DNA from: Bacteroidales bacterium
GTDB lineage: Bacteria > Bacteroidota > Bacteroidia > Bacteroidales > UBA3824
DNA length: 64,000 bases
Direction: 5' to 3'
Assembly (NCBI GenBank): GCA_045597465.1
Contig: JAZLKG010000035.1
Coordinates: forward strand, 51,740-115,739
Positions within the stretch are counted from its first letter, which is position 1. Every line of letters begins with the position of its first letter. Shown here one piece after another: positions 12,275 to 61,451 of the stretch. The position numbers and the translations under genes are program-made. Under the pieces are notes generated by a model, which was given only the letters and a program-made list of their open reading frames with translations, was not told the origin of the DNA and searched no databases.

Positions 12275-12298
12275 AGCGTTTATGGCCTGTTTTCATTG

Positions 12299-12365: not shown

Positions 12366-12373
12366 TAATTTTG
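12366..12373 (+). promoter_or_regulatory. -7 promoter box TAATTTTG
   Basis: Perfect TAnnTTTG, 45 nt upstream of ATG 12418. Confidence 0.5.
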
Positions 12374-29670: not shown

Positions 29671-29716
29671 ACGGCCCGCTGGGAATAGCAAGATTTCCGG
29701 CGGGCCGTTTTTTTTA
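29671..29716 (+). terminator. Rho-independent terminator (cassette 3' flank, copy 1)
   Basis: ACGGCCCGC...GCGGGCCGT stem followed by T8. It is homologous to 33500-33543. Confidence 0.75.
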
Positions 29717-29719
29717 CCT

Positions 29720-29776
29720 AAAATCCTTGGAAATGTGTAAAAATCCGCTTGCAAAATCCTTGGAAATGTGTAAATT
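29720..29776 (+). repeat. Two direct repeats of AAAATCCTTGGAAATGTGTAAA, 33 bp apart
   Basis: Identical 22-mers start at 29720 and 29753. A third, partial copy follows the second cassette terminator at about 33546-33562. Confidence 0.85.
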
Positions 29777-29781: not shown

Positions 29782-29884
29782 TTTTAGGAATATGAAACGT
29801 AAAGTATATCAGCGGCTTGTGAAATAAGGCATAAATTATATGTCATCATTGCTGTAGAGACGTGGCCTTGCCGCGTCTCGGATA
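29782..29884 (+). pseudogene. Ghost of an AAA-ATPase gene 3' end plus its downstream hairpin
   Basis: 29851-29884 (GCTGTAGAGACGTGGCCTTGCCGCGTCTCGGATA) repeats 31481-31514 with 33 of 34 identical, including the TAG stop. The upstream sequence TATATGTCATCATTGCTGTAG parallels TATATGGCCTTTATGCTGTAG at the real gene end. Similarity further upstream is weak. Confidence 0.45.
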
Positions 29885-30158: not shown

Positions 30159-31487
30159 ATGTATAAAAGGAAGATTGAGGAAATTCTGAAGAAGTGGAAG
30201 GCAAATAGCAACAGGTTTCCGCTGGTGATAAAAGGATGTCGCCAGTGCGGAAAAACATTCTCTGTTGTAAACTTTGCACGCAGTAATTACAAGAATGTTG
30301 TCTATATGGATTTCTTCAACAATCCAGAGTACAAGGAGATTTTCAATGGATCTTTGGATGTTGACAGGATTTGTCTCCGTATATCATCGCTTGTGCCTGG
30401 GGTCAGGATTGTGGCAAACGAGACCTGTTTCGTCTTTGACGAGATTCAGGATTGCCCAAAGGCCAGGATGTCGCTGAAATTCTTCAAGATTGACGGCCGT
30501 TATGATGTCATCTGCACGGGTTCGCTCCTTGGTGTGAATGGCTACAGGTCTTCCAATATGAATAAAGACGACGAGAACACACCTTTGCCTGTTGGTTACG
30601 AGACCATCATAGATATGTATCCGATGGATTTTGAGGAATGGCTCTGGGCCAACGGTATCAGTAAGCCTACTCTCGATTACCTGAGAGATTGTTTCGATAG
30701 TAAAGAGCCTGTGGATGAGGCTATTCACAATCGTATGCGTCAACTGATGCTTCAATATGTGATAGTGGGAGGCATGCCGCGCGCCGTAAATGCCTTTTTC
30801 GAGACCAACAATTATCAGGAAGTTCAGATAGTGCAGCGGGGCATTGTGGATGAGTACAAGAGCGATATGATAAAATATGCGCCATCTCAGGACAAGCCTC
30901 GCATACGTGAGTGTTTCGAGTCGATACCCAAGCAGCTGAGCCGGGAGAACAAGAAATTCTCTTATTCAGTGGTACGTGCAGGCGGACGTGGGCGCGATTA
31001 CGTTGGCAGTCTTCAGTGGATAGAGGATGCCGGCATCATACGCCGCTGTTACAATCTGGAAATCACCGAATTGCCTTTGGACGGCAATGCCATTTACGAT
31101 CAGTTTAAGGTATATATGGCCGATACCGGTTTGTTTGTGAGCATGCTGGAGGAAGGCACGGCCTGGGCCATCGAGCAGGGAAACCTATTGAGCTACAAGG
31201 GAGCTATTTTCGAGAACCTTGTGGCTGATATCCTTGGCAAGGCGGGGCGCAAGCTGTATTATTTCCGCAAGGATTCAGGATTGGAGGTTGATTTTGTGAT
31301 AAGATACTGCGACAAATGCACCTTGCTGGAATGCAAGGCATCGTCGGGCAATATCAAATCCGCCAAAACCATCCTCCAGCATCCCGAGAAATACCATGTT
31401 TACGACGCCATGAAATTAGGAGATTACAATATCGGCCATACCGGTCAGTTTGTTACATTGCCGATATATATGGCCTTTATGCTGTAG
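30159..31487 (+). CDS. AAA+ ATPase (AAA_14/DUF4143-type) with a C-terminal PD-(D/E)xK-like motif
   Basis: 442 aa with Walker A (GCRQCGKT), Walker B (CFVFDEIQ) and a C-terminal GLEVDFVI...LLECKAS (D..ExK pattern). Confidence 0.8.
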   Translation: MYKRKIEEILKKWKANSNRFPLVIKGCRQCGKTFSVVNFARSNYKNVVYMDFFNNPEYKEIFNGSLDVDRICLRISSLVPGVRIVANETCFVFDEIQDCPKARMSLKFFKIDGRYDVICTGSLLGVNGYRSSNMNKDDENTPLPVGYETIIDMYPMDFEEWLWANGISKPTLDYLRDCFDSKEPVDEAIHNRMRQLMLQYVIVGGMPRAVNAFFETNNYQEVQIVQRGIVDEYKSDMIKYAPSQDKPRIRECFESIPKQLSRENKKFSYSVVRAGGRGRDYVGSLQWIEDAGIIRRCYNLEITELPLDGNAIYDQFKVYMADTGLFVSMLEEGTAWAIEQGNLLSYKGAIFENLVADILGKAGRKLYYFRKDSGLEVDFVIRYCDKCTLLECKASSGNIKSAKTILQHPEKYHVYDAMKLGDYNIGHTGQFVTLPIYMAFML

Positions 31488-31514
31488 AGACGTGGCCTTG
31501 CCACGTCTCGGATA
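31481..31514 (+). repeat. 34-bp direct repeat with a 9-bp-stem hairpin (copy 2), overlapping the ATPase stop codon
   Basis: In GCTGTAGAGACGTGGCCTTGCCACGTCTCGGATA, GAGACGTGG pairs with CCACGTCTC. It lies exactly 1630 bp downstream of copy 1. Confidence 0.8.
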
Positions 31515-33499: not shown

Positions 33500-33543
33500 A
33501 CGGCCCGCCGGGAACACCAAACTCCCGGCGGGCCGTTTTTTTT
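33500..33543 (+). terminator. Rho-independent terminator (cassette 3' flank, copy 2)
   Basis: 14-bp perfect stem ACGGCCCGCCGGGA / TCCCGGCGGGCCGT followed by T8. Confidence 0.8.
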
Positions 33544-33624
33544 ACCAAAATCCTTGGAAACTTCCGCCTTATTTTGGCATTTTCTTTGCAATGTAAATTT
33601 CAAACTACAAAAATCCAAGGAAAA

Positions 33625-49000: not shown

Positions 49001-49024
49001 AAAAGACACGAAGTGTCTTTTTTT
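49001..49024 (+). terminator. Second terminator-like hairpin
   Basis: AAAAGACAC-GAA-GTGTCTTTT followed by further T residues. It lies immediately before the left inverted repeat of the GxxExxY cassette. Confidence 0.5.
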
Positions 49025-49030
49025 GATTGA

Positions 49031-49562
49031 ACACGAATTACCATAAATTATCACGAATTATCATAAATTTTTTTATATGAACGATTTTAAGAAATATGAA
49101 GATATTGTCTATCAGATAATAGGAGCTGCTATGTATGTTCACACGGAAATGGGATGGGGACTTCTGGAACCATTATACAATGAGTGTCTTCATTTGGAAT
49201 TGCTTGATAGAGGTGTGGAAAACTCTTCTGAGGTGGATCTGCCTTGTTATTTCAAGAATCATAAATTGGCTAAGTCTTATAGAATGGATATTGTAGTTGG
49301 GAGCGATATTTGCGTTGAGTTGAAATCAGTACAGGATCTTGTTTCAGAACATAGAGCCCAACTTTTTAATTATCTGCGGTTAACAAAGAAGCCTATTGGT
49401 TTGTTGATTAACTTTGGAAGGAAAAAATTGCAGGGAGAAAGGTATGGTTACAATAGTGAAACGAATGAATGTATTTTGTTAGATAAAAATATGAATATTG
49501 TAAACAATGAATTATATATTAATTATTGATGATAATTCGTGGTAATTTATGGTAATTCGTGT
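49031..49562. mobile_element. 532-bp cassette: GxxExxY gene bracketed by 34-bp inverted repeats
   Basis: IR-L is 49031-49064 (ACACGAATTACCATAAATTATCACGAATTATCAT). The reverse complement of IR-R (49529-49562) matches it at 33 of 34 positions. Each IR is itself two tandem CACGAATTAYCATAAATT units. Mobility is an inference. Confidence 0.45.
49077..49529 (+). CDS. GxxExxY protein (PDDEXK_3-type predicted nuclease)
   Basis: 150 aa with GWGLLEPLY (the GxxExxY motif) and YRMDIVVGSDICVELKSV (the D..ExK motif). Confidence 0.8.
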   Translation: MNDFKKYEDIVYQIIGAAMYVHTEMGWGLLEPLYNECLHLELLDRGVENSSEVDLPCYFKNHKLAKSYRMDIVVGSDICVELKSVQDLVSEHRAQLFNYLRLTKKPIGLLINFGRKKLQGERYGYNSETNECILLDKNMNIVNNELYINY

Positions 49563-49609
49563 AAAAAAAAAGTGGGCGAAGCCCACTAAACCTTGATTTT
49601 GTGTAGAAT

Positions 49610-50203
49610 ATGGAAGCATTTTTTCAGTTAGAAAAGTTCCCGGAGGCGGGATGTGATGAGGCTGGACGTGGTTGTCTGGCTGGTCCGGTGGTGGCCGGAG
49701 CGGTGATTTTTCCGCAGGATTACTTCAACCAAAAGATCAACGACAGCAAGCAACTGTCTGAGAAAAAGCGCTTTGAACTGCGTGACGAAATTATCCGCGA
49801 TGCCATATCGTACGGCATAGGAATCTGCACCAACGAGGAGATAGACCGTATGAATATCCTCCAGGCTTCGCTCACCGCGATGCATCGTGCGCTTGATCAG
49901 CTGCATCAGAGACCCGAATTTATAATAATAGACGGCAACAAATGGCGCGATTATAACAGCATACCTTTTCAGACAGTTGTGAAGGGTGATTCAAAGTATC
50001 TCTCCATAGCCGCGGCCTCCATACTTGCCAAGACCTACAGGGACGAGATGATTGTGGAAGCATCAGAACAATACCCTATGTACAACTGGGCCAAGAACAA
50101 AGGCTACCCAACCAAGGACCACCGCATGGCAATTCTGGAATACGGCGTGTGTCCGCTCCACAGGCTCACTTACGGCCCTTGTCAGCCGCGTCTTGACTTA
50201 TAA
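49610..50203 (+). CDS. rnhB: Ribonuclease HII
   Basis: 197 aa with GCDEAGRGCLAGPVVAGAV and DSKQLS motifs. Confidence 0.95.
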   Translation: MEAFFQLEKFPEAGCDEAGRGCLAGPVVAGAVIFPQDYFNQKINDSKQLSEKKRFELRDEIIRDAISYGIGICTNEEIDRMNILQASLTAMHRALDQLHQRPEFIIIDGNKWRDYNSIPFQTVVKGDSKYLSIAAASILAKTYRDEMIVEASEQYPMYNWAKNKGYPTKDHRMAILEYGVCPLHRLTYGPCQPRLDL

Positions 50204-50283
50204 AATTTACAGTTGTAATTTGTAAACAAGCATAATTAAATGCAAAATTAACAAAAATAAACCTTCTGATACACAAAAAATTA

Positions 50284-50320
50284 AGGGGCGACGTTGCAAA
50301 CAACGCCGCCCCTGTGTTTT
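50284..50320 (+). terminator. Terminator-like hairpin after rnhB
   Basis: AGGGGCGACGTTG-CAAA-CAACGCCGCCCCT forms a 13-bp stem with one mismatch, followed by GTGTTTT. Confidence 0.55.
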
Positions 50321-50348
50321 ATGCGGATTTTTTTTTTACAATATTTTT

Positions 50349-50846
50349 TTACTGATTTACGAATTTCTCGATATCCATTCCGATGCCTTCCTTGATTATC
50401 TCGAGACCTTCCTTGTATTCATCGCCGTAATCTCTGATACCATCCTGGTGATCGGACTTGATTATGTTGTAGTACATGTTGTCTACCTTGTCGCCAGGCT
50501 TCAGCCACTCGTTCATCAGTCTCAAGGCTGGGATAAGGGCGTACTGCTTGCCGTTCAGCTTCTTGGCCTCATGGATATAGTTGAGACGTCCGGTAAGGTA
50601 TATGAGGTCCTCGCCTTTGTAGAGTTCTTTGGCGTTTGTACCGTTTTCCATCGATTCGTCTACGGCGTTGCTGGCCAGTTCAAGGTTTTCTACGCAAACC
50701 GAGACAAAGCTGTCTACCTGCTGCTGGTTCATGCTGTCTATCATCACTCCGTTTTTGAGTGTCTCTGGTGGGAATGTGCATGCAGATTGGGCTATAATTG
50801 CCACAAAAGCCGACATTGCCACTACCATCATAATGATTTTTTTCAT
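50349..50846 (-). CDS. Hypothetical lipoprotein
   Basis: 165 aa with a signal sequence and Cys (MKKIIMMVVAMSAFVAIIAQSAC). I do not recognise a family. Confidence 0.5.
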   Translation of the reverse strand: MKKIIMMVVAMSAFVAIIAQSACTFPPETLKNGVMIDSMNQQQVDSFVSVCVENLELASNAVDESMENGTNAKELYKGEDLIYLTGRLNYIHEAKKLNGKQYALIPALRLMNEWLKPGDKVDNMYYNIIKSDHQDGIRDYGDEYKEGLEIIKEGIGMDIEKFVNQ

Positions 50847-50941
50847 AATTGTGTGTGTTTATGTGTGTTGATATAATTATTTTGACGCAAAAATAATAAA
50901 AAAATGTAATATCAGTATTATTTTTCCTGATTAAATTAATA

Positions 50942-50975
50942 ATGCGGATTCATAACCGCAGATTTTGCGGTTAAG
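50942..50975 (+). repeat. Ghost copy of the Fic gene 3' end plus hairpin
   Basis: ATGCGGATTCATAACCGCAGATTTTGCGGTTAAG matches 52133-52166 at 32 of 34 positions. Only the inner 8-9 bp stem is retained. Confidence 0.75.
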
Positions 50976-50994
50976 AATAATTCAATTATCTTTG
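50964..50994 (+). promoter_or_regulatory. Bacteroidota promoter for fic (-33 TTTG, 19-nt spacer, -7 TATCTTTG)
   Basis: TTTG lies at 50964-50967 and TATCTTTG at 50987-50994, with the ATG at 51013. The -33 element sits inside the ghost hairpin. Confidence 0.55.
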
Positions 50995-51012
50995 CAAACA
51001 AAAATTATTGCT

Positions 51013-52146
51013 ATGTATATCCACGAATTGAAAGATTGGCCATATTTCTATTGGGACAAGGACTCTGTAGGTGCTTATCAGCTGAGGGTGTCCCGTGAGG
51101 CCTCGTATCTATATGGCAAACTCAGTTCAATAGGTTTTCAGGGACAGTTGCAGGCGGTTGTTGAGAGTATCACATACGATGTAATGTGCTCGTCGGAGAT
51201 AGAGGGCGTGCACCTCAACAACAGTCAGGTGCGCTCGTCGATAGCACGTAAACTTGGTGCTGTGATAAATGATTTTGCCGAGCCGTCGCATTATATTGAC
51301 GGCATTGTGGAGATGATGCTTGATTCCACTACCAATTATAATAGTGAGTTGACCTCGGAGCGATTGTTTGGTTGGCATTCCTGTCTTTTTCCTAACGGCC
51401 GCAGTGGATACTCGCTGATAGATGTTGCAAAATATCGCACTGGTGCAATGCGTGTGGTATCAGGAAATTATGGCCGGGAGAGAGTTCATTATGTGGCTCC
51501 TGATGCTGATAGGATAGGAGAGGAGATGAGGCTGTTTTTCAGTTGGTTCAATTCCAGTTCAGTAACACGTGATTATGTGAAATCCGCCATTGCCCATTTG
51601 TGGTTTGTCTGCATTCATCCTTTCGACGATGGCAACGGACGCATAGGCCGAGCCATTGCTGATATGGCCTTGCAACAGGCCGACGATAGCAAGATGAGAT
51701 TTTTCAGCGTATCTCAACAGATAAACGCCGACAAGAAACATTATTACGATATCCTGGAGCGTACTCAGAGTAAGAAATCGCTTGATATTACCGAGTGGCT
51801 GATATGGTATCTCGAATGTATTGGAAATGCAATCAAGAATGCCGAGCGAAACTATCAAATGGTGGTGGATAAGTCGGCATTCTGGCAAAACCACAGTCAG
51901 ACCGAATTGTCGGCCCGTCAGTGTGACGTTATCAATATCTATCTTGATGGCTATATTGGAAAGCTGACGGCCAAAAACTGGGCAAAACTCTCCAAAGTGT
52001 CGCTCGATACAGCCTCGCGCGATATCAAGGATCTTGTCAGCAAAAACATTCTGACACCCAACACCAACCAGGCCCGTAATGTGAATTATGCATTGATTAT
52101 TGGCAATGGAAGAAAACTGGATTTCCTCTCTGATGCGGATTTATAA
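51013..52146 (+). CDS. Fic family protein (DUF4172-type N-terminus)
   Basis: It has the Fic motif HPFDDGNGRIGRAI, and the N-terminus YIHELKDWPYFYWD is typical of the DUF4172-Fic architecture. I trimmed the start to ATG 51013. Confidence 0.9.
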   Translation: MYIHELKDWPYFYWDKDSVGAYQLRVSREASYLYGKLSSIGFQGQLQAVVESITYDVMCSSEIEGVHLNNSQVRSSIARKLGAVINDFAEPSHYIDGIVEMMLDSTTNYNSELTSERLFGWHSCLFPNGRSGYSLIDVAKYRTGAMRVVSGNYGRERVHYVAPDADRIGEEMRLFFSWFNSSSVTRDYVKSAIAHLWFVCIHPFDDGNGRIGRAIADMALQQADDSKMRFFSVSQQINADKKHYYDILERTQSKKSLDITEWLIWYLECIGNAIKNAERNYQMVVDKSAFWQNHSQTELSARQCDVINIYLDGYIGKLTAKNWAKLSKVSLDTASRDIKDLVSKNILTPNTNQARNVNYALIIGNGRKLDFLSDADL

Positions 52147-52173
52147 CCGCAGATTTTGCGGTTATGAATCCGC
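52133..52173 (+). repeat. 17-bp-stem hairpin overlapping the Fic stop codon
   Basis: GCGGATTTATAACCGCA-GATTT-TGCGGTTATGAATCCGC at 52135-52173, with one U-G position. A related ACCGCAGACTTTGCGGTTAAGG lies at 58924-58945. Confidence 0.75.
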
Positions 52174-52180
52174 AAAATCA

Positions 52181-52256
52181 GGAATTTTGTGAAAAAATGG
52201 CAGAAAATGGCTGGAATTTTGTGAAAATTTAGGCTAAAAGTATTGGAATTTTGTGA
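52181..52256 (+). repeat. Three direct repeats of GGAATTTTGTGA phased at exactly 32 bp
   Basis: Copies start at 52181, 52213 and 52245. Confidence 0.8.
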
Positions 52257-52356
52257 TTTTTAAAACATTATATTGGTATGGCACAACTACTTAGACGAAA
52301 ATAGATGATGATCTAAAATTTCGGTCTCAGGACGGCCGAAAATAAAGAAAAATGAT

Positions 52357-52364
52357 TACCTTTG
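52357..52364 (+). promoter_or_regulatory. -7 promoter box TACCTTTG
   Basis: Perfect TAnnTTTG, 63 nt upstream of ATG 52427. Confidence 0.4.
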
Positions 52365-52426
52365 TGATTGATGACCGCGAATGATAGAATGTGGCATTTA
52401 TGTATAACCAATACACTGAGTAAGAT

Positions 52427-53173
52427 ATGGAATATTCAGATGATTTTGTTAAACTTATCAAACGCCTCAGTGCAAATACTGACGAGCATTTACAATTTAT
52501 TGGCTTCGGGAATCCCAACTCAAAGATTTTGTTTGTAGGAAAAGAATGTGGCGATGATTCTGACAGTTCCAATGAGAAAGACTACAATAAACAGAATCTC
52601 TCACACTGGAAAAAGAACATTAGTGAGTCTCCACTTCCTATTGACATTTGGTACCCAAATCATAACGAAGTTTTTAATCCTGAATATCCCTACAATGGAA
52701 TGCCGATGAAAAAACTATCAGGAGGTCACACTTGGCGCAATTACCAAAAGATAGTTGATGGCATTACATGTGAATGCAGTTCGGAGTTTGTCGATTTTTA
52801 CAAGTATGCATTTGCTACAGAGCTAAACTCGGTTGTAAGAAAATACAGTAAATATAGCATCGAAGCAAGAGACTCCATAGAAAAAAGAGCACAGCATCTT
52901 TTGTGCGACCCATTCTATAAGAACTTTCCTATTACAATTGTTGGTTGTGGCGGTTATCTTAATCGATACAATATCAATTTAGAAAAAGTCTTTGGTGTTA
53001 GGTGGGAAGGACGTACTATTGAAATAACCAACTCCAATGACAAGAAAATTGGGTGGATAAATGTCCATTATGCTGATGGGAGGATATTGATACATACAAG
53101 ACAATTGTCTATGTGTTCTGGTAAATTGATTAATGAAATTATAGAGTTATGTAAGCCTTTTTACTCTATATAG
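52427..53173 (+). CDS. Hypothetical protein (remote uracil-DNA-glycosylase-superfamily-like motifs)
   Basis: 248 aa. KILFVGKECGDD resembles UDG motif A (VGEAPG) and ILIHTRQLS resembles motif B (HPS). The resemblance is weak. Confidence 0.5.
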   Translation: MEYSDDFVKLIKRLSANTDEHLQFIGFGNPNSKILFVGKECGDDSDSSNEKDYNKQNLSHWKKNISESPLPIDIWYPNHNEVFNPEYPYNGMPMKKLSGGHTWRNYQKIVDGITCECSSEFVDFYKYAFATELNSVVRKYSKYSIEARDSIEKRAQHLLCDPFYKNFPITIVGCGGYLNRYNINLEKVFGVRWEGRTIEITNSNDKKIGWINVHYADGRILIHTRQLSMCSGKLINEIIELCKPFYSI

Positions 53174-53191
53174 CTATTAAATCACTTTTTC

Positions 53192-53233
53192 AACAGGGTT
53201 GTGCATTCCTTTTGCATTACCCTGTTTTTATTT
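53192..53233 (+). terminator. Rho-independent terminator
   Basis: AACAGGGT ... ACCCTGTT stem followed by TTTTTATTTT. Confidence 0.6.
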
Positions 53234-53510
53234 TGCCTCATAAAAGAAGAAAAGGGGTTCTTATAAAAATCATTGTATCATAACTCATAATAGATTATAG
53301 AAAACAGAGTTCCCCATTGTAACTAGCTTCTACACTTTCCCGTATTTCCTGACTTTTCTGCTAAAGCGGTGGATAGGAGAGAGGATATTAAAAGAGGAGA
53401 GTGAGCAATCTGAATAATTACTATATTACAAAAAGTTTGCTATAATCAGCGCTAAGTGTTTTTTTTGGTGTCCACTTTTTCAGGCTGGTACAAAAAAAAA
53501 CAAACTATTT

Positions 53511-53594
53511 CGGAAAAAATGTATTTTTCTGCTTGCGATTTTACGGAAAAAATGTATTTTTGTGCTATCGTAAATATGGAATAAATGTAATTTG
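53511..53594 (+). repeat. Three direct repeats of CGGAAAAAATGTATTTTT phased at exactly 33 bp, ending at the ATPase start codon
   Basis: Copies start at 53511 and 53544 (identical 18-mers) and at 53577 (TGGAATAAATGTAATTTG). The ATG is at 53597. Confidence 0.85.
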
Positions 53595-53596
53595 CT

Positions 53597-54970
53597 ATGC
53601 TTAAAAGAAAGATAACCAATAGGATAGAAGAATTTTTGAAGTCAGGAGCAAAAAAGATGCTTATTATTGATGGAGCGCGTCAGATAGGCAAATCTTTTAT
53701 TATACGTCACGTTGGAAAAAAAATGTTTTCAAATTATATTGAAATCAATATGGAACGTGACAAGCAAAACGACCGTGCTTTTGCTCAGGCTAAGACTTTG
53801 GATTCTTTTTATTTGGCTTTGAGTTCTATTGCAGGCCAAAAAATGAAAGATAGAAATAATACTCTGGTATTTATTGATGAGATTCAAGCTTATCCTCATT
53901 TGCTCACTTTGGCAAAGTTTTTAGTGGAAGACAACAAGTTCACTTACATTGCAAGTGGATCTTTGCTGGGTGTCACTTTGCAAAGTACGCAATCTATTCC
54001 TGTTGGGTATATTGAGCGAGAACAAATGTATCCGCTTGATTTCGAGGAATTTCTTTGGGCCAATAATGTAGGTGAATTGGTGATTGAAAAGATGCGGGAC
54101 TTGTTCAAAAAGGCTATTGTAGATAGGCAATACGAAAGTCTGGATTCTGCATTGAACCAAAAAATATTGGACTTGTTCCGTCGTTATCTTTTGGTCGGAG
54201 GTTTGCCTGAGGCTGTTAATACATACATTGAGAGCCATAATATCGTGAAGGTACGCACTGTTCAAAATAGTGTATTGCAGATGTATGCACTTGATGCCGC
54301 CAAATATGAGCAAGAGTCGTCGCGGAAGCTTAAGATACAGAGAATTTATCAGATGATTCCTTCTAATCTTGAAAATCACAAAAAGCGTGTGGTTGTAAAA
54401 GATATAGAAGGAAAGGTTGGCAAACGAACGAGTGATTATCAGGATGAGTTTGATTATCTTGTATCTTCAGGCATTGCTTTGGAGGTGGATGCGGTAAGTC
54501 AGCCTGTTTATCCATTGATACAGAATGCAGGTAAAAATCTATTGAAGTTGTATATAAATGATGTTGGATTGTTCACAAATATTCTTTACAAAGAGAATAT
54601 CAGATCTGTAATTGATGATATTTGTAGTGTGAATTTGGGTGCTGTATATGAGACTGCTGTTGCCCAAGAGCTCAAGGCTCACGGATTTGGCTTGTTTTAT
54701 TATGACAACAAGAAGGTAGGTGAAGTGGACTATCTTATTGATGATGCTGATACTCTGTCTCCATTGCCTATAGAAGTAAAGTCGGGCAGAGACTATACTA
54801 TCCATAGTGCATTAAGTAAATTTATGAAAGTTCCTACTTATAACATAAAACGGGCTTGTGTCCTCTCTAACGAAGCCTCTATTTATGAATCGGATGGCAT
54901 TGTATATATGCCTATATACAATGTTATGTTTTTCAAACCTAATATGAGGGATGTGATTTTGGAGTTTTAA
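53597..54970 (+). CDS. AAA+ ATPase (AAA_14/DUF4143-type) with a C-terminal PD-(D/E)xK-like motif
   Basis: 457 aa with Walker A (GARQIGKS), Walker B (LVFIDEIQ) and a C-terminal GEVDYLID...LPIEVKSG. Confidence 0.85.
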   Translation: MLKRKITNRIEEFLKSGAKKMLIIDGARQIGKSFIIRHVGKKMFSNYIEINMERDKQNDRAFAQAKTLDSFYLALSSIAGQKMKDRNNTLVFIDEIQAYPHLLTLAKFLVEDNKFTYIASGSLLGVTLQSTQSIPVGYIEREQMYPLDFEEFLWANNVGELVIEKMRDLFKKAIVDRQYESLDSALNQKILDLFRRYLLVGGLPEAVNTYIESHNIVKVRTVQNSVLQMYALDAAKYEQESSRKLKIQRIYQMIPSNLENHKKRVVVKDIEGKVGKRTSDYQDEFDYLVSSGIALEVDAVSQPVYPLIQNAGKNLLKLYINDVGLFTNILYKENIRSVIDDICSVNLGAVYETAVAQELKAHGFGLFYYDNKKVGEVDYLIDDADTLSPLPIEVKSGRDYTIHSALSKFMKVPTYNIKRACVLSNEASIYESDGIVYMPIYNVMFFKPNMRDVILEF

Positions 54971-54971
54971 C

Positions 54972-55044
54972 AAAAAAACTGCGTTATATTCTGCAAAATG
55001 TCCTTTTTTTTGATAGATTTTGCAGAATATAACGCAGTTTTTTT
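54972..55044. repeat. 73-nt palindromic element A (28-bp perfect stem)
   Basis: AAAAAAACTGCGTTATATTCTGCAAAAT (54972-54999) pairs with ATTTTGCAGAATATAACGCAGTTTTTTT (55017-55044) across the 17-nt loop GTCCTTTTTTTTGATAG. The shape is that of a bidirectional terminator. Confidence 0.85.
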
Positions 55045-55065
55045 GTAAGGGGAAGAGGCGTCCTT

Positions 55066-55650
55066 TTATTTCTTCTCAATGATTGCGATGGCGAGTTTGC
55101 CGAACAGCATTGCTATGCGGTCCTCTATTCGGTCTTCTGAAGTACCATTGAATCTGTGTATGTTGAGAGAGCAGATTGTCTTCTTGTTTTTAAGGTCAGT
55201 GATGTCGATTGTGCCTGTTATTATCATTCGGCTCTTGTCTTCGGTTACCTGTTCCTTGTTGGCTATTCTGCGGCCAAGATTCTTTACCCATTTGGTTGAT
55301 TTTGCAACACCTTGCTCTACTGTTGATAGAGATTGCTCTATGTTCTTTACGTTGAAAACGATGCTGTATTGCGCATTGTTGCCAATCTTCAGGTCGTCGG
55401 AGGCTATGTTGAATGCCGATCTGAATGCCTGCATCGATAGGTTTGCCCTATTGCTGTAATCGTTGCCACACCAGGTCTTGAAGTTCTCGAACTCGTTGAT
55501 GGTGGCGTTGTCGAGTTTTATCTCTATTGAGGCGGTTGACTTTTCCGAAAGGAACTTTAGATCTCCGCTTTTTATCGATATCTCGTCTATCTGAGCGAAC
55601 GACGAGAGCGATGTTAGTATCGCTATTAGTATTAATGTGATTTTTCTCAT
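55066..55650 (-). CDS. Secreted hypothetical protein
   Basis: 194 aa with a signal peptide (MRKITLILIAILTSLSSFAQ). I do not recognise a family. Confidence 0.55.
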   Translation of the reverse strand: MRKITLILIAILTSLSSFAQIDEISIKSGDLKFLSEKSTASIEIKLDNATINEFENFKTWCGNDYSNRANLSMQAFRSAFNIASDDLKIGNNAQYSIVFNVKNIEQSLSTVEQGVAKSTKWVKNLGRRIANKEQVTEDKSRMIITGTIDITDLKNKKTICSLNIHRFNGTSEDRIEDRIAMLFGKLAIAIIEKK

Positions 55651-55680
55651 TTCTTTGTATATGTTGGATGGTTGTGTTTA

Positions 55681-56664
55681 TTACTTTTTGCGGGCACCCC
55701 AGTCAAGTCCTATGGTTAATAGGATAGTGCTATTGTTCGTTGTTGATTGACTTTCTGATTTGGCTTGATATCTATTGCCACCACTTGTTACTTTATCCCC
55801 AGTAAATGATGTATGTTCGTATCTTAAGGCAAAATTCCAGTGTGATACTCTGTATCCTAATGCTGGAGAGATGTAGAATGATGCTTTGCCTGCGGATGTA
55901 GATATTTCTACTCCCGTTCTTAATTCTGCAAATAGATTGGATTTTTCTTCGGAAGATGGAATCTCGCATCGCAAGTCGGTGAAAATAGGAATATTGGCAT
56001 TGATGTCAGTGTTACCCTGAATTTCATTATGAGCTATGCCCAAAATAACACCGCTTCCTAATCCTGCGAAAAAAGTTTCTCCAAGTTGTTTCCCATAAGT
56101 AATATATGAAATGGGACACCATGCGTTGCTTGAGCTTGAACTTTCGTTTGTGTTTTTTCCTGTAGTTGTTGTTGTGTTGACGGTTGAGCTTGTATAGCCG
56201 CCTCCCAACTCAAAGAAGCCTCTCCATCCTTTGCGGATATCCGTCTCTATGGATGATGATGAGGCAGGGGACTTTGCCTTGGGTGCAGGTTCCGATTGGG
56301 CGTAGTCCTTCTCCTTGGGTTGCTTTGGTTCTTTCTCTATGGTGATGTACTTCTTGGTAAGGAACTTGTCGAGTTTCTCGTTGCCTGAAGGCTCAAGTTC
56401 TTTGCTTGGTTTGGGTGTGGTGGATGAGGCGGTCTGTGCAGGTGCGGACACTTCTTCTTTGGTGATCTTGGCTACCTCGCTCATCTTGTATACAAACAAG
56501 GAGCCGTCGGCAGTCTGTATCTTGAGGCTCTCGTTGGGCACCTGCTCGATGATTACGCCCTTGATTACGCTTCCATTTTTCAGATGGACAACCTCTTTGT
56601 AGTTCTGAGCAAAGATAGTGGCCGAGGTTGCGAGCGCAACTATCAGTAGTAGTAGTTTTTTCAT
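55681..56664 (-). CDS. Probable outer-membrane beta-barrel protein with N-terminal globular domain and low-complexity linker
   Basis: 327 aa with a signal peptide, an N-terminal KEVVHLKNGSVIKGVIIEQVP domain, a P/S/K/E-rich linker, and a C-terminal half with alternating-hydrophobic strands (FFELGGGY, FYISPALGYRV, ILLTIGLDWG). Confidence 0.55.
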   Translation of the reverse strand: MKKLLLLIVALATSATIFAQNYKEVVHLKNGSVIKGVIIEQVPNESLKIQTADGSLFVYKMSEVAKITKEEVSAPAQTASSTTPKPSKELEPSGNEKLDKFLTKKYITIEKEPKQPKEKDYAQSEPAPKAKSPASSSSIETDIRKGWRGFFELGGGYTSSTVNTTTTTGKNTNESSSSSNAWCPISYITYGKQLGETFFAGLGSGVILGIAHNEIQGNTDINANIPIFTDLRCEIPSSEEKSNLFAELRTGVEISTSAGKASFYISPALGYRVSHWNFALRYEHTSFTGDKVTSGGNRYQAKSESQSTTNNSTILLTIGLDWGARKK

Positions 56665-56741
56665 TGTGGTAATAATTTAAGTGATTTCAGTAATCCGTGT
56701 TTTACCGACAAGTGAAAAATCTGTTTCCTAGTTTTGGGGGT

Positions 56742-56892
56742 GTCAGGGCACAAAAAATGCGTGCGCCTGACTTTACCAATCTTCTAGGTCCTAGGATAAC
56801 CCGTACTCACGATAAGTCATGCCCACGCAAAAGCGCAGGCATTCACTGACTTATTCGAAGTGAGTACAATTGAATTTCCTAGGTTCAGAAGA
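56742..56892 (-). ncRNA. Candidate structured 5' leader or small RNA
   Basis: Hairpin 56742-56771 is GTCAGGGCAC...GTGCGCCTGAC. A three-segment hairpin at 56803-56867 pairs GTACTCAC/GTGAGTAC, ATAAGTCA/TGACTTAT, TGCC/GGCA and CGC-AAAA-GCG. It is enclosed by TCTTC(56780)/GAAGA(56888) and CCTAGG palindromes. The strand was assigned from the promoter at 56970-57000. Confidence 0.3.
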
Positions 56893-56969
56893 ATCACCGA
56901 ATAAATAGCAAATGCTAATTTATATATGTCGTTTATGTCTTGTTGTCCAATTGTGGCTGTTCAACTTTG

Positions 56970-57000
56970 CAAATATAGAAATTTTTATGTGAACGGCAAA
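56970..57000 (-). promoter_or_regulatory. Bacteroidota promoter (-33 TTTG, 19-nt spacer, -7 TATATTTG) on the minus strand
   Basis: The reverse complement of 56970-56977 is TATATTTG and of 56997-57000 is TTTG. This predicts a leader of about 300 nt before ATG 56664. Confidence 0.5.
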
Positions 57001-57019
57001 GGATAATGAGAGAAATTTT

Positions 57020-58444
57020 TTATCCAAACAAATCCTCTGTTGTAACCACGTTTTGTATGATGTCGGCGTTTGGGGTGCGTTTTAGGCCTTTGGTGGTTAC
57101 TAAGACTATGTGAATCGCTTTGTCGGGGCCGGCAAACTCTGAGAGACGGAGTATGCGGTTCTGAATCCTTGAATATTCCTCGTCGTCAAGTTCGTATGTA
57201 TCAGAATAATATTTCATCTCGCAAATGTCGATTACGTCGTCGTCGCGGTCGATGAGTAGGTCTATTTGAACGCCTTTCTCGTTGGTATTAAGTTTGTTTT
57301 TGGAGTAACGCCACGAATACTCGCTGCTGAGGACTCCGCCAATACTTAACGCACGTTTTATTTGGTTTACGTGTATCAGGCATACTCTCTCGAAGGCAAG
57401 TCCGCACCAAACGTTTTTTATTTGCGAATTTAGGTTGCGCGACCAGAATTGATGGTCTTTCCTCTCGTTTTCTGCTATAAATTTGAAGTAGAACAATGTA
57501 TAGAAGTCAACAAGCTGAAAAACAGTGCCTTTGGTCTTGTTGCCAAGTTGATTGTAACTGCGGATAAATCCACAATGCTCCAAGTCTTCCAATATTGTGG
57601 TCAAGTTTCCGTTGTTGTGTGCTCCAATATTATCAACTATTTCATCTCGGGTCATTCCTATTTTTTTCTTGCCTAATGCTGTTACCACGTCGATATAGTT
57701 TTCAGGAGAGCGGAAGAGGGACGAATACAGTTCATCAAATTCCCGTTTTAGTGGCGCGTCTTCCGCAAAAAACATTTGGTCGATGTTCTGAGGCATTCCA
57801 AGTTCGCGTTTCATAAACGACCAATAGAATGGCACTCCGCCAATTATCATATAAGTCTCGAGAATCTGTTTTTTCGACATTCCCAGTTTTCTGTCTTGTG
57901 CGTATTGCTGACATTCGTTGAGGGTAAATTGTTGCAGATGAATGCGATGAGTGATACGGTTGTGGAGCCCGCCGTGATTTTTGATTACCTTGTTTATTAT
58001 CCACGAGGTGGCACTGCCGCATATCACCAGAACTATGTCCTTTCTTGCTGATGCCCAGCCATTCCAGAAAAATTCCAAAGCGGGAAGGAATTCCGAGCGT
58101 TTGGTGTCCATCCAAGGCATTTCGTCTATAAAGATTACTTTCTTGGGCTCGTTGGAATTTCTGATTAAATCTTTGAGTAAATCAAATGCGTCGATCCAGT
58201 TTTTGGGAGTTGCCCTTACTTTCATGCCATAGTCAGAAAGTGACGATTTCCAAGCCAAGAGTTGCTGCTTGAAATCGGAGTTGGCAAGACCAGAGTGCTG
58301 AAAAGTGAATTTGTTGTTGAAGAATTCTCTTATAAGGAAAGTTTTTCCAACACGTCTGCGCCCGTAAACTGCCACAAACTCAGAGTATTGCGAGTTTACT
58401 GCCTCTTGAAGTTCCGCCATTTCTTTTTTTCTTCCGATAATCAT
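57020..58444 (-). CDS. AAA ATPase (archaeal-ATPase/DUF234-like) with a C-terminal PD-(D/E)xK-like motif
   Basis: 474 aa with Walker A (GRRRVGKT), Walker B (VIFIDEMPW) and a C-terminal VQIDLLIDRDDDVIDICEMKYY. Confidence 0.8.
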   Translation of the reverse strand: MIIGRKKEMAELQEAVNSQYSEFVAVYGRRRVGKTFLIREFFNNKFTFQHSGLANSDFKQQLLAWKSSLSDYGMKVRATPKNWIDAFDLLKDLIRNSNEPKKVIFIDEMPWMDTKRSEFLPALEFFWNGWASARKDIVLVICGSATSWIINKVIKNHGGLHNRITHRIHLQQFTLNECQQYAQDRKLGMSKKQILETYMIIGGVPFYWSFMKRELGMPQNIDQMFFAEDAPLKREFDELYSSLFRSPENYIDVVTALGKKKIGMTRDEIVDNIGAHNNGNLTTILEDLEHCGFIRSYNQLGNKTKGTVFQLVDFYTLFYFKFIAENERKDHQFWSRNLNSQIKNVWCGLAFERVCLIHVNQIKRALSIGGVLSSEYSWRYSKNKLNTNEKGVQIDLLIDRDDDVIDICEMKYYSDTYELDDEEYSRIQNRILRLSEFAGPDKAIHIVLVTTKGLKRTPNADIIQNVVTTEDLFG

Positions 58445-58484
58445 AGCCTTGGATTTTTAATTGATTTCACGGAGCAAAGATAAT

Positions 58485-58555
58485 AAAAAACTGCGTTATA
58501 TTCGGCTAAATGTTTCTTTTTTTTAGAGATTTAGCCAAATATAACGCAGTTTTTT
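58485..58555. repeat. 71-nt palindromic element B (27-bp stem, one mismatch)
   Basis: AAAAAACTGCGTTATATTCGGCTAAAT (58485-58511) pairs with ATTTAGCCAAATATAACGCAGTTTTTT (58529-58555) across the loop GTTTCTTTTTTTTAGAG. It has the same outer arms and orientation as element A. Confidence 0.85.
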
Positions 58556-58592
58556 ATTTATTGAGTGCGTATTAAGTGACCGTGTTTGTTAG

Positions 58593-58859
58593 CTACCAAA
58601 ATATATTGTTGACCATAAAGTCTACTCCTCCTCTTGTTTGGTTATGGTCTCTGGTGAATCTTACAGTTTGTTTCTTGGCTTTGTTTGGGAAGTGTTTTTT
58701 CTTGGCTTCGTTGAATACTGATAATCCAGCACCCCACTGATTGTAATATTCTGTACCACTTACATTGTAGGTGTTTCTCTCCACAACAATGTTGGCTTCT
58801 TGGTTTTGGATGTAATTGAAGAAATATTTTCGGCCATTAATACGTAATTCAATCCGCAT
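58593..58859 (-). CDS. Small hypothetical protein, possibly a gene remnant
   Basis: 88 aa from the ATG. The frame stays open a further 19 codons upstream with no start codon. I do not recognise a family. Confidence 0.3.
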   Translation of the reverse strand: MRIELRINGRKYFFNYIQNQEANIVVERNTYNVSGTEYYNQWGAGLSVFNEAKKKHFPNKAKKQTVRFTRDHNQTRGGVDFMVNNIFW

Positions 58860-58951
58860 ATCTTCAGGAAGGTAGGTTTGGTATTCTAACTTTCCAGAGT
58901 TTGAAGTTAACCCCTAAAGTTGGACCGCAGACTTTGCGGTTAAGGAAAAGT

Positions 58952-60055
58952 TTACAACAGTTTTCTCAAATCCTCCTCGTTGGGTAACGCTTTCTTGAAA
59001 TTCTCTGGCATATCTTTGGTGGTGCTGTATGTTGATACGGTCATTGGTTTTGAGTAATCTCTTAGTGCGAATTCTATTACCGTTTTCTTTGCCTCTTTGC
59101 AAAGTATTATTCCTATTGACGGATTTTCGTGCTCCTTTTTCACAGACTTGTCCAAAGCGCTTAGATACATGCTCAATTGTCCAAGGTATGCGGGCTTGAA
59201 TTTACCAGTCTTCAGCTCAATAGCCACCAGACAGTTGAGGTCGCGGTTGAAGAATAGCAAATCAATGAAATATTCCTCGTCTTCCACCATTACCCTGTAT
59301 TGGTTTCTTATGAAGAGGAAGTCATCGCCGAATTGCTCGATGAATTTTCTTATGTTGTTTACAATTTCGTTTTCCAGTACAGCCTCGTCGATATCCTCGT
59401 CGTCTTCGCCCAGAGGTTCCACATTAATGAACTGCAGCAGATAGTTGTCCTTGAATGCCTTAACAGCCTTTACTGCCATTTTTTGAGATGATATTGTCTG
59501 CTTGAAATTGTTTGCTGGCTGATGCTGGGAATATAGGCCTGACTTAATGTAGTCACGGAGGGTATATTTGTTCCAAGCGTTTTTAACAGCCTCGGTGATG
59601 TAGTAAAATCGTTCCTGCAGGTTCTTGCACAATGAGAATATCTGCACGTGATGTGAGAATGGCAATTGCACAAAATATGCCCAATCAAATTCGCCAACCG
59701 CCGGTTGGCGAATTTGAGAAAGAAGATGCTTTTCGTCAATGCCTTCAGACTCAATTTGTTGATGGGCTTCTATAAGTGAATTCCATTCCTCATAAAACTG
59801 ACGCATATATTTAATCATGCTTTCAGAATAACCCGTCAGACCTGGCATTTCTTTTTGTAGTTGTTCTGATATCATGCGGATTGCGCCCTTGCCCCAATAT
59901 CCGTTGCGGGAGTTCTTGGATACAAAGTTTCCTATTCCGTAATAAAGGGAAAGCATCTCTCTATTAACAGACATTACAGCCTTGTACTGACTGCGTTGTA
60001 TAGCCTCCTTAATCGTCTTGACGGCGTTTGTGTATTTTTCTTCTATGGCTTCCAT
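58952..60055 (-). CDS. PDDEXK nuclease domain protein (YhcG/DUF1016 family)
   Basis: It has a DUF1016-type N-terminus (REMLSLYYGIGNFVS) and the nuclease core YFIDLLFFNRDLNCLVAIELKTGKFKPAYLGQLSMYL. I trimmed the start to ATG 60055. Confidence 0.85.
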   Translation of the reverse strand: MEAIEEKYTNAVKTIKEAIQRSQYKAVMSVNREMLSLYYGIGNFVSKNSRNGYWGKGAIRMISEQLQKEMPGLTGYSESMIKYMRQFYEEWNSLIEAHQQIESEGIDEKHLLSQIRQPAVGEFDWAYFVQLPFSHHVQIFSLCKNLQERFYYITEAVKNAWNKYTLRDYIKSGLYSQHQPANNFKQTISSQKMAVKAVKAFKDNYLLQFINVEPLGEDDEDIDEAVLENEIVNNIRKFIEQFGDDFLFIRNQYRVMVEDEEYFIDLLFFNRDLNCLVAIELKTGKFKPAYLGQLSMYLSALDKSVKKEHENPSIGIILCKEAKKTVIEFALRDYSKPMTVSTYSTTKDMPENFKKALPNEEDLRKLL

Positions 60056-60081
60056 TAAGGTTGTGTATTGATTTATTTTTG

Positions 60082-60089
60082 CAAATATA
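60082..60089 (-). promoter_or_regulatory. -7 promoter box TATATTTG for the YhcG-like gene
   Basis: Perfect TAnnTTTG on the minus strand, 27 nt upstream of ATG 60055. Confidence 0.5.
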
Positions 60090-60091
60090 AC

Positions 60092-60132
60092 AAAAAAAAG
60101 TCCCGGCAAAGTCATTTGTCGGGACTTTTTTT
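60092..60132 (-). terminator. Rho-independent terminator after tyrS (bidirectional shape)
   Basis: A8-GTCCCG ... CGGGAC-T7, with a 14-nt loop. Confidence 0.75.
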
Positions 60133-60152
60133 GTTATATCAGCGTGAGCAAG

Positions 60153-61451
60153 TTACTCTGCCTTGATGATGAACCAGTTTTTCTTGCCTTTCTTTACGAG
60201 GATGTATTTGCCGTCGAGGAGGGCGTCGGCGTTGATGATGGCCTTCTCGTCGGATACTTTCTCGAGATTGATGGCTATGGCGTTTTCCTTTACAGAGCGG
60301 CGAGCCTCAGACTTTGATGCAAGGCACTGTGTCTTGTCAGCCAACAAATCCAGCAATCCGATACCTGCCGAAAGCTCTGCCTTCGAGATGTTGAACTGTG
60401 GAACGCCAGCGAATACCGACATGAATGTGGCCTCGTCCAAAGCGAGAAGCTGATCCTTGGTGCCCTTGCCGAAGAGTATCTGTGATGCTGATACGGCAGT
60501 GTTGTAGGCCTGCTCGCCGTGTACCATGATGGTGATGTGCTTGGCGAGTACGCTCTGAAGCTGACGGCGGCCTGGATCCTGCTTGTGCTCTGCGATGAGA
60601 TTCTCAATCTCCACGTGAGAGAGCAAAGTATATATCTTAATGTATCTCTCAGCGTCCTCGTCGGATGTGTTCATCCAGAACTGGTAGAACTCGTATGGCG
60701 AAGTGAGCTTTGGATCGAGCCAGATGTTGCCCTTCTCGGTCTTGCCGAACTTGGTGCCGTCGGCCTTCTTGATGAGAGGACATGTGAGACCGAAAGCCTC
60801 AGCCTCCTGACCATCGATACGGCGGATGAGCTCGGTACCTGTTGTGATGTTTCCCCACTGATCCGCACCACCCATCTGGAGCTTGCAGTTCATATTCTTG
60901 CGGAGGTAGTAGAAGTCGTAACCCTGCATGAGCTGGTAAGAGAACTCTGTGAAGCTCATTCCCTCTCTTGACTCAGAAGAGAAACGCTTCTTTACTGAAT
61001 CCTTGGCCATCATGTAGTTTACGGTGATGTGCTTGCCGATGTCGCGGATAAAGTTGATGAAAGAGAAATCCTTCATCCAGTCGTAGTTGTCCACGAGAAC
61101 AGCCTTGTTGGGAGCGTCGCTCTCAAAATCGAGGAACTTTGCCAGCTGTGCCTTGATGCAGGCCTTGTTGTGGTTGAGGGTTTCCTCGTTGAGGAGGTTG
61201 CGCTCGGCTGATTTTCCCGATGGGTCGCCCACCATACCTGTGGCGCCGCCTACGAGGGCTATCGGCTTGTGGCCGGCCATCTGGAAATGCTTCAATATCA
61301 TGATAGATACGAGGTGACCTATGTGCAGTGAGTCTGCTGTAGGGTCGATACCTACGTAAGCTGTGGTCATCTCCTTGGCGAGCTGCTCTTCTGTTCCAGG
61401 CATCATGTCCTGAATCATGCCACGCCATTTAAGATCGTCGATAAAATTCAT
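60153..61451 (-). CDS. tyrS: Tyrosine--tRNA ligase
   Basis: 432 aa with HIGH (DSLHIGHLV), KMSKS-type KFGKTEKG and a C-terminal S4-like domain. Confidence 0.95.

Follow-up and report, generated by a model that had tools for sequence, protein, structure and literature searches.

A repeated AT-rich palindrome at module borders of a hypervariable rnhB-tyrS island in uncultured Bacteroidales

The described systems closest to the repeat analysed here are repeated extragenic palindromes, bidirectional intrinsic terminators, the Correia repeat enclosed elements (CREE) and minimal mobile elements (MMEs) of Neisseria, and the attC sites of integrons. The repeat, which we name junction element E, is a palindrome of ~75 nt that occurs twice, as elements A and B, in a stretch of 64,000 nt (64 kb; hereafter the window) from contig JAZLKG010000035.1 of a Bacteroidales bacterium. 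Both copies lie in a low-GC island of variable gene content between the core genes rnhB and tyrS. On balance, and with slightly better than even confidence, we read E as a lineage-specific AT-rich bidirectional terminator or insulator at the 3′ ends of gene modules that also provides portable homology for module shuffling. E stands at the 3′ limits of self-contained modules that have promoters of their own, in an island of mostly candidate phage-defence genes, and its hosts are a narrow clade of uncultured Bacteroidales. Its sequence and distribution suggest a new member of the repeated extragenic palindromic terminators, a narrowly distributed addition set in an island of MME type.

Repetitive extragenic palindromic (REP) sequences, bacterial interspersed mosaic elements (BIMEs) and REP doublets forming hairpins (REPINs) resemble E as repeated palindromes at gene 3′ ends, between tandem or convergent genes, and it has been proposed or shown that they terminate transcription, stabilise mRNA and are hot spots of recombination or insertion. 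Between tandem and convergent genes, REP elements serve both to terminate transcription and to stabilise mRNA (bioRxiv 10.64898/2026.03.23.713779), and REP and Correia elements are precedents for terminator, stabiliser and RNase III roles and for rearrangement hot spots (bioRxiv 10.64898/2026.03.23.713779; PMC2649163). REPs differ from E in having hundreds of dispersed, GC-rich copies with ~35-nt stems that contain mismatches, and in their link to REP-associated tyrosine transposases (RAYTs). E has few copies in one island, is AT-rich with a 30-bp near-perfect stem and flush A and T runs, and has no RAYT nearby; dispersed copies of the REP kind are absent from 243 kb of window and relatives. 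CREE are likewise short with inverted ends, form RNA hairpins, affect the expression of neighbouring genes and are hot spots of rearrangement and deletion, and their shortest forms measure 71-73 bp (PMC2649163). They differ in having 100-250 dispersed copies, in creating promoters and integration host factor (IHF) sites, and in leaving filled and empty sites, none of which is seen for E.

Bidirectional intrinsic terminators share with E a hairpin with an A-run and a T-run, placed between convergent genes or ahead of a promoter. The usual intrinsic terminator has a stem of 5-14 bp and a loop of 3-8 nt, whereas E has a low-GC stem of 30 bp and a loop of 17 nt. Ordinary terminators are also gene-specific, while the sequence of E is reused after unrelated genes.

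In the definition of an MME, two conserved genes enclose whole-gene cassettes that differ from strain to strain (PMC3082526). Eight different gene sets occur between the same core genes rnhB and tyrS, which places the island within this definition. As in the Neisseria elements, no mobility genes are seen (here among the ORFs scanned), and exchange there is attributed to homologous recombination (PMC3082526). MMEs place the crossovers in the conserved flanking genes; here internal hairpins (E and the families hp2, hp4 and rep3) also mark the joints between modules.

Integron attC sites are imperfect palindromes at the 3′ end of small gene units, with conserved outer and variable inner parts, and their recombinant sites are hybrids of the parents, as are two copies of E described below (L018c and L002a). 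Chromosomal integron arrays also often hold defence genes. In attC sites the 5′ core site R″ has the sequence RYYYAAC and the 3′ core site R′ the sequence GTTRRRY, and the stems contain extrahelical bases. E reads ...GCGTTATAT...ATATAACGC..., in which GTT comes before AAC and each core departs from the consensus at one position; its stem lacks bulges and holds one mismatch at most. The island differs from an integron in having no IntI, attI or Pc, in modules that carry TAnnTTTG boxes and lie in mixed orientation (the AAA_14 gene is opposite), and in scattered switch points. We rejected an integron or other recombinase-driven system on two grounds: there is no integrase, transposase or RAYT in the window or in the islands of relatives, and the order of the attC core sites is not that of E. 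Domains of these three kinds are absent from the ~44 major open reading frames (ORFs) scanned across the 64 kb, which were chosen from a list of ORFs of at least 150 aa together with smaller island ORFs. In the literature we found nothing specific on a Bacteroidales repeat of this kind, nor on DUF4143 genes in defence.

Copies of E and the modules around them

Elements A and B are direct repeats in the same orientation with 86% identity over 71 nt, and the loop is 17 nt in both (repeat finder). The two palindromes lie where the initial annotation of the window placed them, with stems slightly longer than it described (30 bp each). From left to right, E consists of an A-run, the outer arm ACTGCGTTATATT, a 9-nt inner arm, the T-rich loop, the mirror arm and a T-run. 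The outer arm pair (ACTGCGTTATATT...AATATAACGCAGT) is invariant, and the inner arm has two variants, A or B: the inner stem is CTGCAAAAT/ATTTTGCAG in element A and CGGCTAAAT/ATTTAGCC(A) in element B. Element B has a single mismatch, which reads C.A on the plus strand and G.U on the minus strand. The 13-mer of the arm, ACTGCGTTATATT, matches exactly at four places in the window, all of them within A and B, and a third copy of E is absent from the 64 kb.

An exact scan for both arms in one genome per species (185,579 species) returned two contigs only, both from sister Bacteroidales metagenome-assembled genomes (MAGs; loci L001 and L002). A relaxed single-arm pattern had no match in viral contigs and matched 13 places in metagenome contigs, all lone arms without a palindrome; we regard these as chance matches because the arms have no partner. 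The whole 3.7-kb block had no match in plasmid and phage collections, and exact-protein look-ups for YhcG, TyrRS, RNase HII and the AAA_14 representative also gave no match. The closest named genus to the TyrRS is Draconibacterium (~71% identity), and all nearer matches are labelled "MAG: Bacteroidales bacterium".

The islands of relatives were collected by way of proteins that cluster with the AAA_14 ATPase and with the TyrRS. The close relatives, whose TyrRS fall in one cluster at a minimum of 90% identity, are L017, L018, which is a longer piece of the L001 contig, and L019-L027; a more distant relative is L028, with a tyrS product 87% identical. An E profile (nhmmer) run over 243 kb from 15 loci, comprising the window and relatives, found nine further copies in distinct architectures, seven full and two truncated, which makes 11 with those of the window (Table 1). 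The initial annotation treated A and B as copies of one element, and they do belong to a single repeat family; the further copies come from relatives, with none in the rest of the window.

All copies lie inside the rnhB-tyrS island and in one orientation relative to tyrS, with 1-3 copies per genome fragment, and none lies outside it, whether in the remaining 54 kb of the window or in ~180 kb from the relatives. The profile search found no E in L026, L027, L028 or L016, and L028 has neither island nor E. We ruled out that E is tied to the AAA_14 gene family: the locus L016 holds an 82%-identical paralogue of the AAA_14 gene, with no such hairpin after it.

This distribution bears on whether E is a non-autonomous mobile element, of the miniature inverted-repeat transposable element (MITE), REPIN or Correia kind, that inserts in intergenic A/T runs with a transposase or RAYT encoded elsewhere. 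The size of ~71-77 nt, the near-perfect inverted arms and the short spacer do resemble REPINs and the shortest Correia elements (PMC2649163), several copies occur per genome, and a variable centre between conserved outer arms is what terminal inverted repeats typically show. We consider it very unlikely, given the low copy number in a single island and the single orientation of all copies. Among the eight architectures no pair of loci differs by E alone (whole modules differ), no target-site duplication is recognisable, and none of the ORFs scanned in the window encodes a RAYT or transposase.

What changes around E is the set of flanking modules. The 200-nt flanks of the 11 copies fall into five left classes and eight right classes, in 10 combinations. 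Through E, the 3′ end of the AAA_14 gene (left-flank class LA, common to the window, L017 and L018) connects with three right flanks that are unrelated to one another. The ATPase_2 promoter flank, the hp2 + ATPase_2′ flank and the hp2 + YhcG flank have two partners each across E. The switch from a common left flank to an unrelated right flank falls inside E. Between L018 and L002, a stretch of 1.6 kb with 96% identity runs as far as the loop T-run, past which the two are unrelated, and the two truncated copies (L018b and that of L019) end at the loop T-run, where this homology stops. We regard E as a place of module exchange, since several module borders carry these 70-odd bases, each time in the same orientation.

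The 3.4-kb block between A and B, for which the initial annotation raised the possibility of presence, absence or inversion in relatives, does vary. Two copies of E in L017 enclose the ATPase_2 gene only (1.5 kb), with the second copy directly followed by tyrS, and the pair of genes for 194-aa and 327-aa proteins is elsewhere in L018, as a 194-aa/322-aa pair between YhcG and an AbiEii module. No relative has the block inverted; they carry different module sets instead. A simple inversion or deletion of the 3.4-kb block was rejected, as the relatives show neither an inverted nor a cleanly deleted block.

Switch points, hybrid arms and covariation

Switch points could be mapped at informative positions in the inner arms and the loop only, and they fall at several places. 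In the first L017 copy, where the AAA_14 flank is joined to a wholly B-type element, the switch lies left of the inner left arm, in the outer left arm or the A-run. In L019 it lies between the inner left arm and the loop, in L002a within the T-run (a T11 in this copy), in L018c between the loop and base five of the right arm, and in L018a and L017_2 right of the inner right arm, in the outer right arm. Scattered switches fit homologous exchange or gene conversion better than a single-site recombinase, in a small sample. We suggest that modules are exchanged on short portable homology, through gene conversion or ordinary RecA-type homologous recombination, the incoming DNA probably having been taken up from relatives. 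Where the switch lies between the two arms, hybrids without compensation result.

Two such hybrids are present. L018c has a B-type left arm and loop and an A-type right arm, and is followed by the orthologue of the 194-aa gene. L002a has an A-type left arm and a B-type right arm, and is followed by an intact 433-aa gene. Both are mismatched at the two positions that appear compensated between A and B, and each carries the right flank that matches its own right arm. The 3′ end of the 194-aa/327-aa module is always next to an A-type right arm (in the window and at L018 7747-9330), and the 3′ end of the 433-aa gene is always next to a B-type right arm. In general the right-arm type always matches the right flank, and the left-arm type matches the left flank in all classes but one. 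The left arm of L018b is mixed (CGGCAAAAT). The contigs with the hybrids bear k141 in their names, pointing to 141 as the final assembly k-mer; since the 71-nt repeat is shorter than this k-mer, chimeric joining at the repeat appears unlikely.

The hybrids are of the kind expected (B-left/A-right and A-left/B-right) if E were a site of site-specific recombination, attC-like or attP × attB-like, cut in or near the loop by a recombinase encoded elsewhere. Modules would then excise as circles with one E and integrate at another, with hybrid arms at both junctions. This would suit the constant pairing of arm type with its own flank on each side, one left class excepted, and the common point in the loop T-run at which the L018/L002 homology and the two truncated copies stop; all copies have a single orientation, and the small defence-type modules resemble the cassettes of chromosomal integrons. 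We nevertheless judge it unlikely. The ORFs scanned in the 64-kb window and the island flanks of relatives encode no tyrosine or serine recombinase, the switch points are at several positions, and L017 joins the AAA_14 flank to a pure B element. The hallmarks of attC are missing (the GTT...AAC order, no extrahelical bases), the modules have their own promoters with one in opposite orientation, and other joints have different hairpins or none. A bolder form of this idea, in which E, perhaps with hp2, hp4 and rep3, is the recombination site of an undescribed Bacteroidales cassette-exchange system that assembles and reshuffles single-gene defence modules, seems to us distinctly improbable. Crossover would occur in the T-rich loop of the folded palindrome, through a recombinase with its gene elsewhere in the genome, making the system a functional analogue of an integron without an adjacent integrase.

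The initial annotation described inner-stem differences that keep pairing in both A and B. The sequence agrees with this description. It also took the compensated changes as an argument for selection on the hairpin, which the further copies do not support in this form. In an alignment of the nine full copies, 21 of the 28 stem pairs never vary, and 92% of the alignment cells are paired, in genomes with 2-12% DNA divergence between their flanking genes. Two inner pairs vary: five copies are B-type there, two are A-type and two are unpaired, the last being the hybrids. The A-type copies are element A of the window and its syntenic orthologue L018a only, and were counted as one event because both are syntenic. 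The covariation score was reached in 1 of 500 shuffles, a level that related sequences without structure can reach and that rests on one haplotype. L028, with neither island nor E, contributed no diverged copy, and the covariation check that the initial annotation suggested came out negative. The further copies thus break the compensatory pattern, an outcome that the initial annotation had named beforehand as counting against its claim.

A and B differ as two variants of one palindromic repeat, between which recombination occurs inside the element; their differences do not demonstrate selection on pairing. More generally, compensated differences between two copies of a palindrome do not in themselves show that RNA pairing is under selection, since in relatives the same arms may occur mixed and unpaired. 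The folding energy of the hybrids is still -25 to -28 kcal/mol, owing to the invariant outer stem of 19-20 bp beside the U-run, and a truncated copy has no significant fold (z = -1.7). Since the hybrids still fold, pairing of the inner stem is dispensable for the hairpin beside the U-run.

The C.A pair, G.U on the minus strand, occurs in 6/6 B-type right arms and is the sole recurrent mismatch. For intrinsic terminators, evolution by compensatory switches with G.U pairs as intermediates has been documented (PMC5381666). Placed on the mostly transcribed strand, the G.U pair is a weak residual hint of constraint at the RNA level; together with the A/B difference it is compatible with some such constraint, which for the inner stem is weak according to the hybrids.

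Terminator layout and readings of its role

Judged from its shape and position, E looks like a bidirectional intrinsic terminator or insulator, the shape that the initial annotation recognised. A and B fold at -37.5 to -41.5 kcal/mol on either strand, compared with about -7 to -11 kcal/mol for dinucleotide shuffles (z = -10.8 to -12.8; 0/200 shuffles fold as well). A T-run of 6-7 is flush with the stem on both strands in A and B, and the run is kept in 9/9 full copies. These nine lie 0-85 nt past the stop codon of a gene transcribed towards E (two of them with a second short hairpin between the stop codon and E), and the two truncated copies are found downstream of the YhcG gene. Directly after element B and after the second L002 copy come a TAnnTTTG box and the next gene (box region L002 3728-3760). 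No Rfam 15 family matched the elements at the gathering score, and a relaxed search gave sub-threshold matches to long-hairpin models of the miRNA-precursor type only (e.g. 36.7 bits against a gathering score of 72).

A transcript from either strand would contain a long hairpin followed by 6-7 U, which we predict to act as a Rho-independent stop in both directions. Element A would then separate convergent genes, and element B would shield the ATPase_2 promoter from read-through from upstream.

The tyrS terminator (window 60100-60150, minus strand) varies among the relatives. In the window and L019 it is a gene-specific GC hairpin, in L018, L002 and L026 it is hp4, in L017 it is E and in L027 it is another GC-rich hairpin. 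With four different hairpins at the same place 3′ of tyrS, E appears to be functionally interchangeable with ordinary terminators.

Several points weigh against reading E as a terminator that also serves module exchange. The terminator assignment is drawn from shape and position. E is not canonical, with its 30-bp stem, 17-nt loop and ~27% GC, and a simple scan for a terminator consensus does not call it, while nearby core genes have short GC-rich hairpins (e.g. 50284-50313, 49571-49587 and the tyrS terminator). Some module joints have no E, for example 57016-57033 and 58901/58902. The arm type follows its own flank in 10/11 copies, so a central crossover fits as well as homologous exchange. 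Two variants that are each perfectly self-complementary still need an explanation, either selection or arm-to-arm conversion. The comparison sequences are metagenome assemblies, partly of the same lineages, with ~6 independent E-bearing architectures and thus few independent events. Finally, RNase III would be expected to cut a perfect 28-30-bp duplex, and the true role at the RNA level may therefore be processing or stabilisation.

This last point leads to a different account, in which E is mainly an RNase III processing site or a 3′-end stabiliser that sets the half-life of module transcripts. The duplex exceeds what termination needs, REPs stabilise upstream mRNA, the recurrent mismatch is a G.U pair on the mostly transcribed strand, and the hybrids retain a stem of 19-20 bp beside the U-run. 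U-runs flush with the stem on both strands are a signature of termination, and a processing role could coexist with termination and would not replace it. As the main role of E we think it unlikely.

E could also be functionless intergenic DNA that is copied with the modules, its palindrome kept by arm-to-arm templated repair. Few copies in a narrow clade, the persistence of uncompensated hybrids and truncated copies, and joints that do without E are what such DNA would show. The invariant pairs and the high pairing despite divergence of the flanking genes speak against it, as do the constant position of E right after stop codons with flush U-runs and the recurrence of the terminator-then-promoter layout. 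We give this account little credence.

If E is a terminator and a place of exchange as proposed, the clade would be a clean natural example of defence-island rebuilding without mobile-element machinery, in which modules of promoter, gene and strong hairpin are swapped at short repeated palindromes. E would also be a ready-made and very strong candidate bidirectional insulator for Bacteroidales genetics.

Island genes and further repeats

The chromosome around the island is rich in housekeeping genes, including several aminoacyl-tRNA synthetases, dnaG, efp, nadA and others. GC content is 33-44% in the island and 47-52% in the flanking core. The order of the island in the window is a Fic gene, a 248-aa gene, the AAA_14/DUF4143 gene, element A, the 194-aa and 327-aa genes, ATPase_2, element B, an 88-aa ORF and YhcG/DUF1016.

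Table 1. Coordinates of E, of the island features and of other repeats, in the window and in relatives
Feature	Locus	Coordinates	Strand	Remarks
Hypervariable low-GC island	window	50204-60152		between rnhB (49610-50203) and tyrS (60153-61451)
Element A	window	54970-55046	no strand	arms 54970-54999 and 55017-55046, 30 nt, 100% complementary
Element B	window	58482-58558	no strand	arms 58482-58511 and 58529-58558, 30 nt, 97% complementary
AAA_14 + DUF4143 ATPase gene	window	53597-54970	+	stop codon overlaps first base of A; PADLOC candidate PDC-S01, E = 6e-173
Two-gene module, 194-aa and 327-aa proteins	window	55066-56664	-	signal-peptide-like N-termini
Structured leader and promoter region of 327-aa gene	window	56665-57015	-	joint without E
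ATPase_2 (PF01637) gene	window	57020-58444	-	PADLOC candidate PDC-S27, E = 1e-199
TATCTTTG box	window	58475-58482	-	matches TAnnTTTG; abuts base of B; 30 nt upstream of ATPase_2 start codon
3′ remnant of 433-aa gene	window	58559-58901	-	88-aa ORF 58593-58859; gene intact in L002 2396-3697
YhcG/DUF1016 PD-(D/E)XK nuclease gene	window	58952-60115	-	PADLOC candidate PDC-S02, E = 8e-119
E copies	L018	4591-4673; 6279-6321; 7637-7714		L018a; L018b (left arm and loop only); L018c (hybrid)
E copies	L002	2285-2359; 3756-3836		first copy L002a (hybrid)
E copies	L017	3991-4070; 5580-5657		second copy L017_2
E copy	L022-L025			one copy
E copy	L019-L021	L019: near 12226-12263	reverse (L019)	one truncated copy
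ATGCGGATTCATAACCGCAGATTTTGCGGTTAAGAAT repeat	window	50942-50978; 52133-52174; 58924-58949		alternative small hairpins
ATGCGGATTCATAACCGCAGATTTTGCGGTTAAGAAT repeat	L027	11361-11377; 12552-12568		alternative small hairpins
hp2, half copy	window	53425-53457		upstream of AAA_14 gene
hp2	L018	6160-6255; 7557-7612
hp2	L002	2165-2258
hp2	L017	2390-2482
hp2	L019	~12290-12370
hp2	L022	5943-5987
hp4	L018	9746-9775; 11276-11305
hp4	L002	3874-3903; 5396-5425
hp4	L017	4075-4103
hp4	L026	5300-5329; 6830-6859
GGAAWAAATGTAWTTTT repeats	window	53500-53596		three direct repeats of ~18 nt, just upstream of AAA_14/DUF4143 gene
GGAAWAAATGTAWTTTT repeats	L016	9930-10005		upstream of 82%-identical paralogue
47-nt inverted repeats	window	49022-49068; 49525-49571		87% complementary; flank PDDEXK_3 gene 49077-49529
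48-nt direct repeat	window	29837-29884; 31467-31514		88% identical; brackets first AAA_14/DUF4143 gene 30159-31487
38-nt direct repeat	window	29696-29733; 33524-33561		outer repeat around first AAA_14/DUF4143 gene

Element A lies between convergent genes, AAA_14 on the plus strand and the 194-aa gene on the minus strand. The ATPase_2 start codon is 38 nt from element B, which lies between the 3′ end of a gene remnant and the ATPase_2 promoter, all on the minus strand. The gene context given in the initial annotation, with one ATPase gene before A and ATPase_2 beside B, is thus as described, and the N-termini of the 194-aa and 327-aa proteins agree with its mention of two surface-protein genes. 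Neither protein has an above-threshold family match, and no family was assigned to the 433-aa gene. The match of TATCTTTG to TAnnTTTG is read from the sequence; we take this consensus to be the Bacteroidetes -7 promoter motif.

The ATPase_2 gene has 97% DNA identity to L017 4117-5660, where it stands alone between two copies of E. The YhcG gene has 98% DNA identity to L018 6365-7563, where it is flanked by a truncated and a hybrid copy. The Fic protein matches the PADLOC model SoFic, and AbiEii is among the island genes of relatives. We treat the families with PADLOC matches as candidate defence families, not proven ones.

Two joints without E can be placed in the window. At the leader/ATPase_2 joint, homology to L018 stops at ~57033 and homology to the L017 ATPase_2 module starts at 57016. 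Homology of the 433-aa gene remnant breaks at 58901/58902, the start of the YhcG module. The leader upstream of the 327-aa gene (56665-56960, minus strand) folds at -89.3 kcal/mol (z = -7.0), lies within a 2-kb stretch ~88% identical to L018, and has no match in Rfam.

Other repeats occur in and around the island. A second repeat, ATGCGGATTCATAACCGCAGATTTTGCGGTTAAGAAT, can form alternative small hairpins and brackets the Fic gene both in the window and in the distant minimal island of L027, with a third copy after YhcG in the window; this is the same bracketing pattern as that of A and B with a different repeat. The hp2 palindromes (TTAGCGCTGATTATAGC...GGTATAATCAGCGCTAA, then a T-run) lie ~25 nt left of E in relatives, where an extra half copy allows alternative pairings; the window has a half copy only. 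The hp4 hairpins (GTTACGG...CCGTAAC with A and T runs) lie at the 3′ ends of tyrS, AbiEii and ATPase_2 in relatives and are absent from the window. Like E, they have conserved outer and variable inner arms.

The GGAAWAAATGTAWTTTT repeats, found upstream of the AAA_14/DUF4143 gene and of its paralogue in L016, a different locus of a relative, may be an operator or promoter array of this gene family. The PDDEXK_3 gene flanked by inverted repeats lies between asnA and rnhB, and is in the same place in L027 but not in L019, L022 or L026. Elsewhere in the window, the first AAA_14/DUF4143 gene lies between two DUF285 genes with 78-nt periodic repeats and is bracketed by two direct repeats, forming another repeat-flanked ATPase module.

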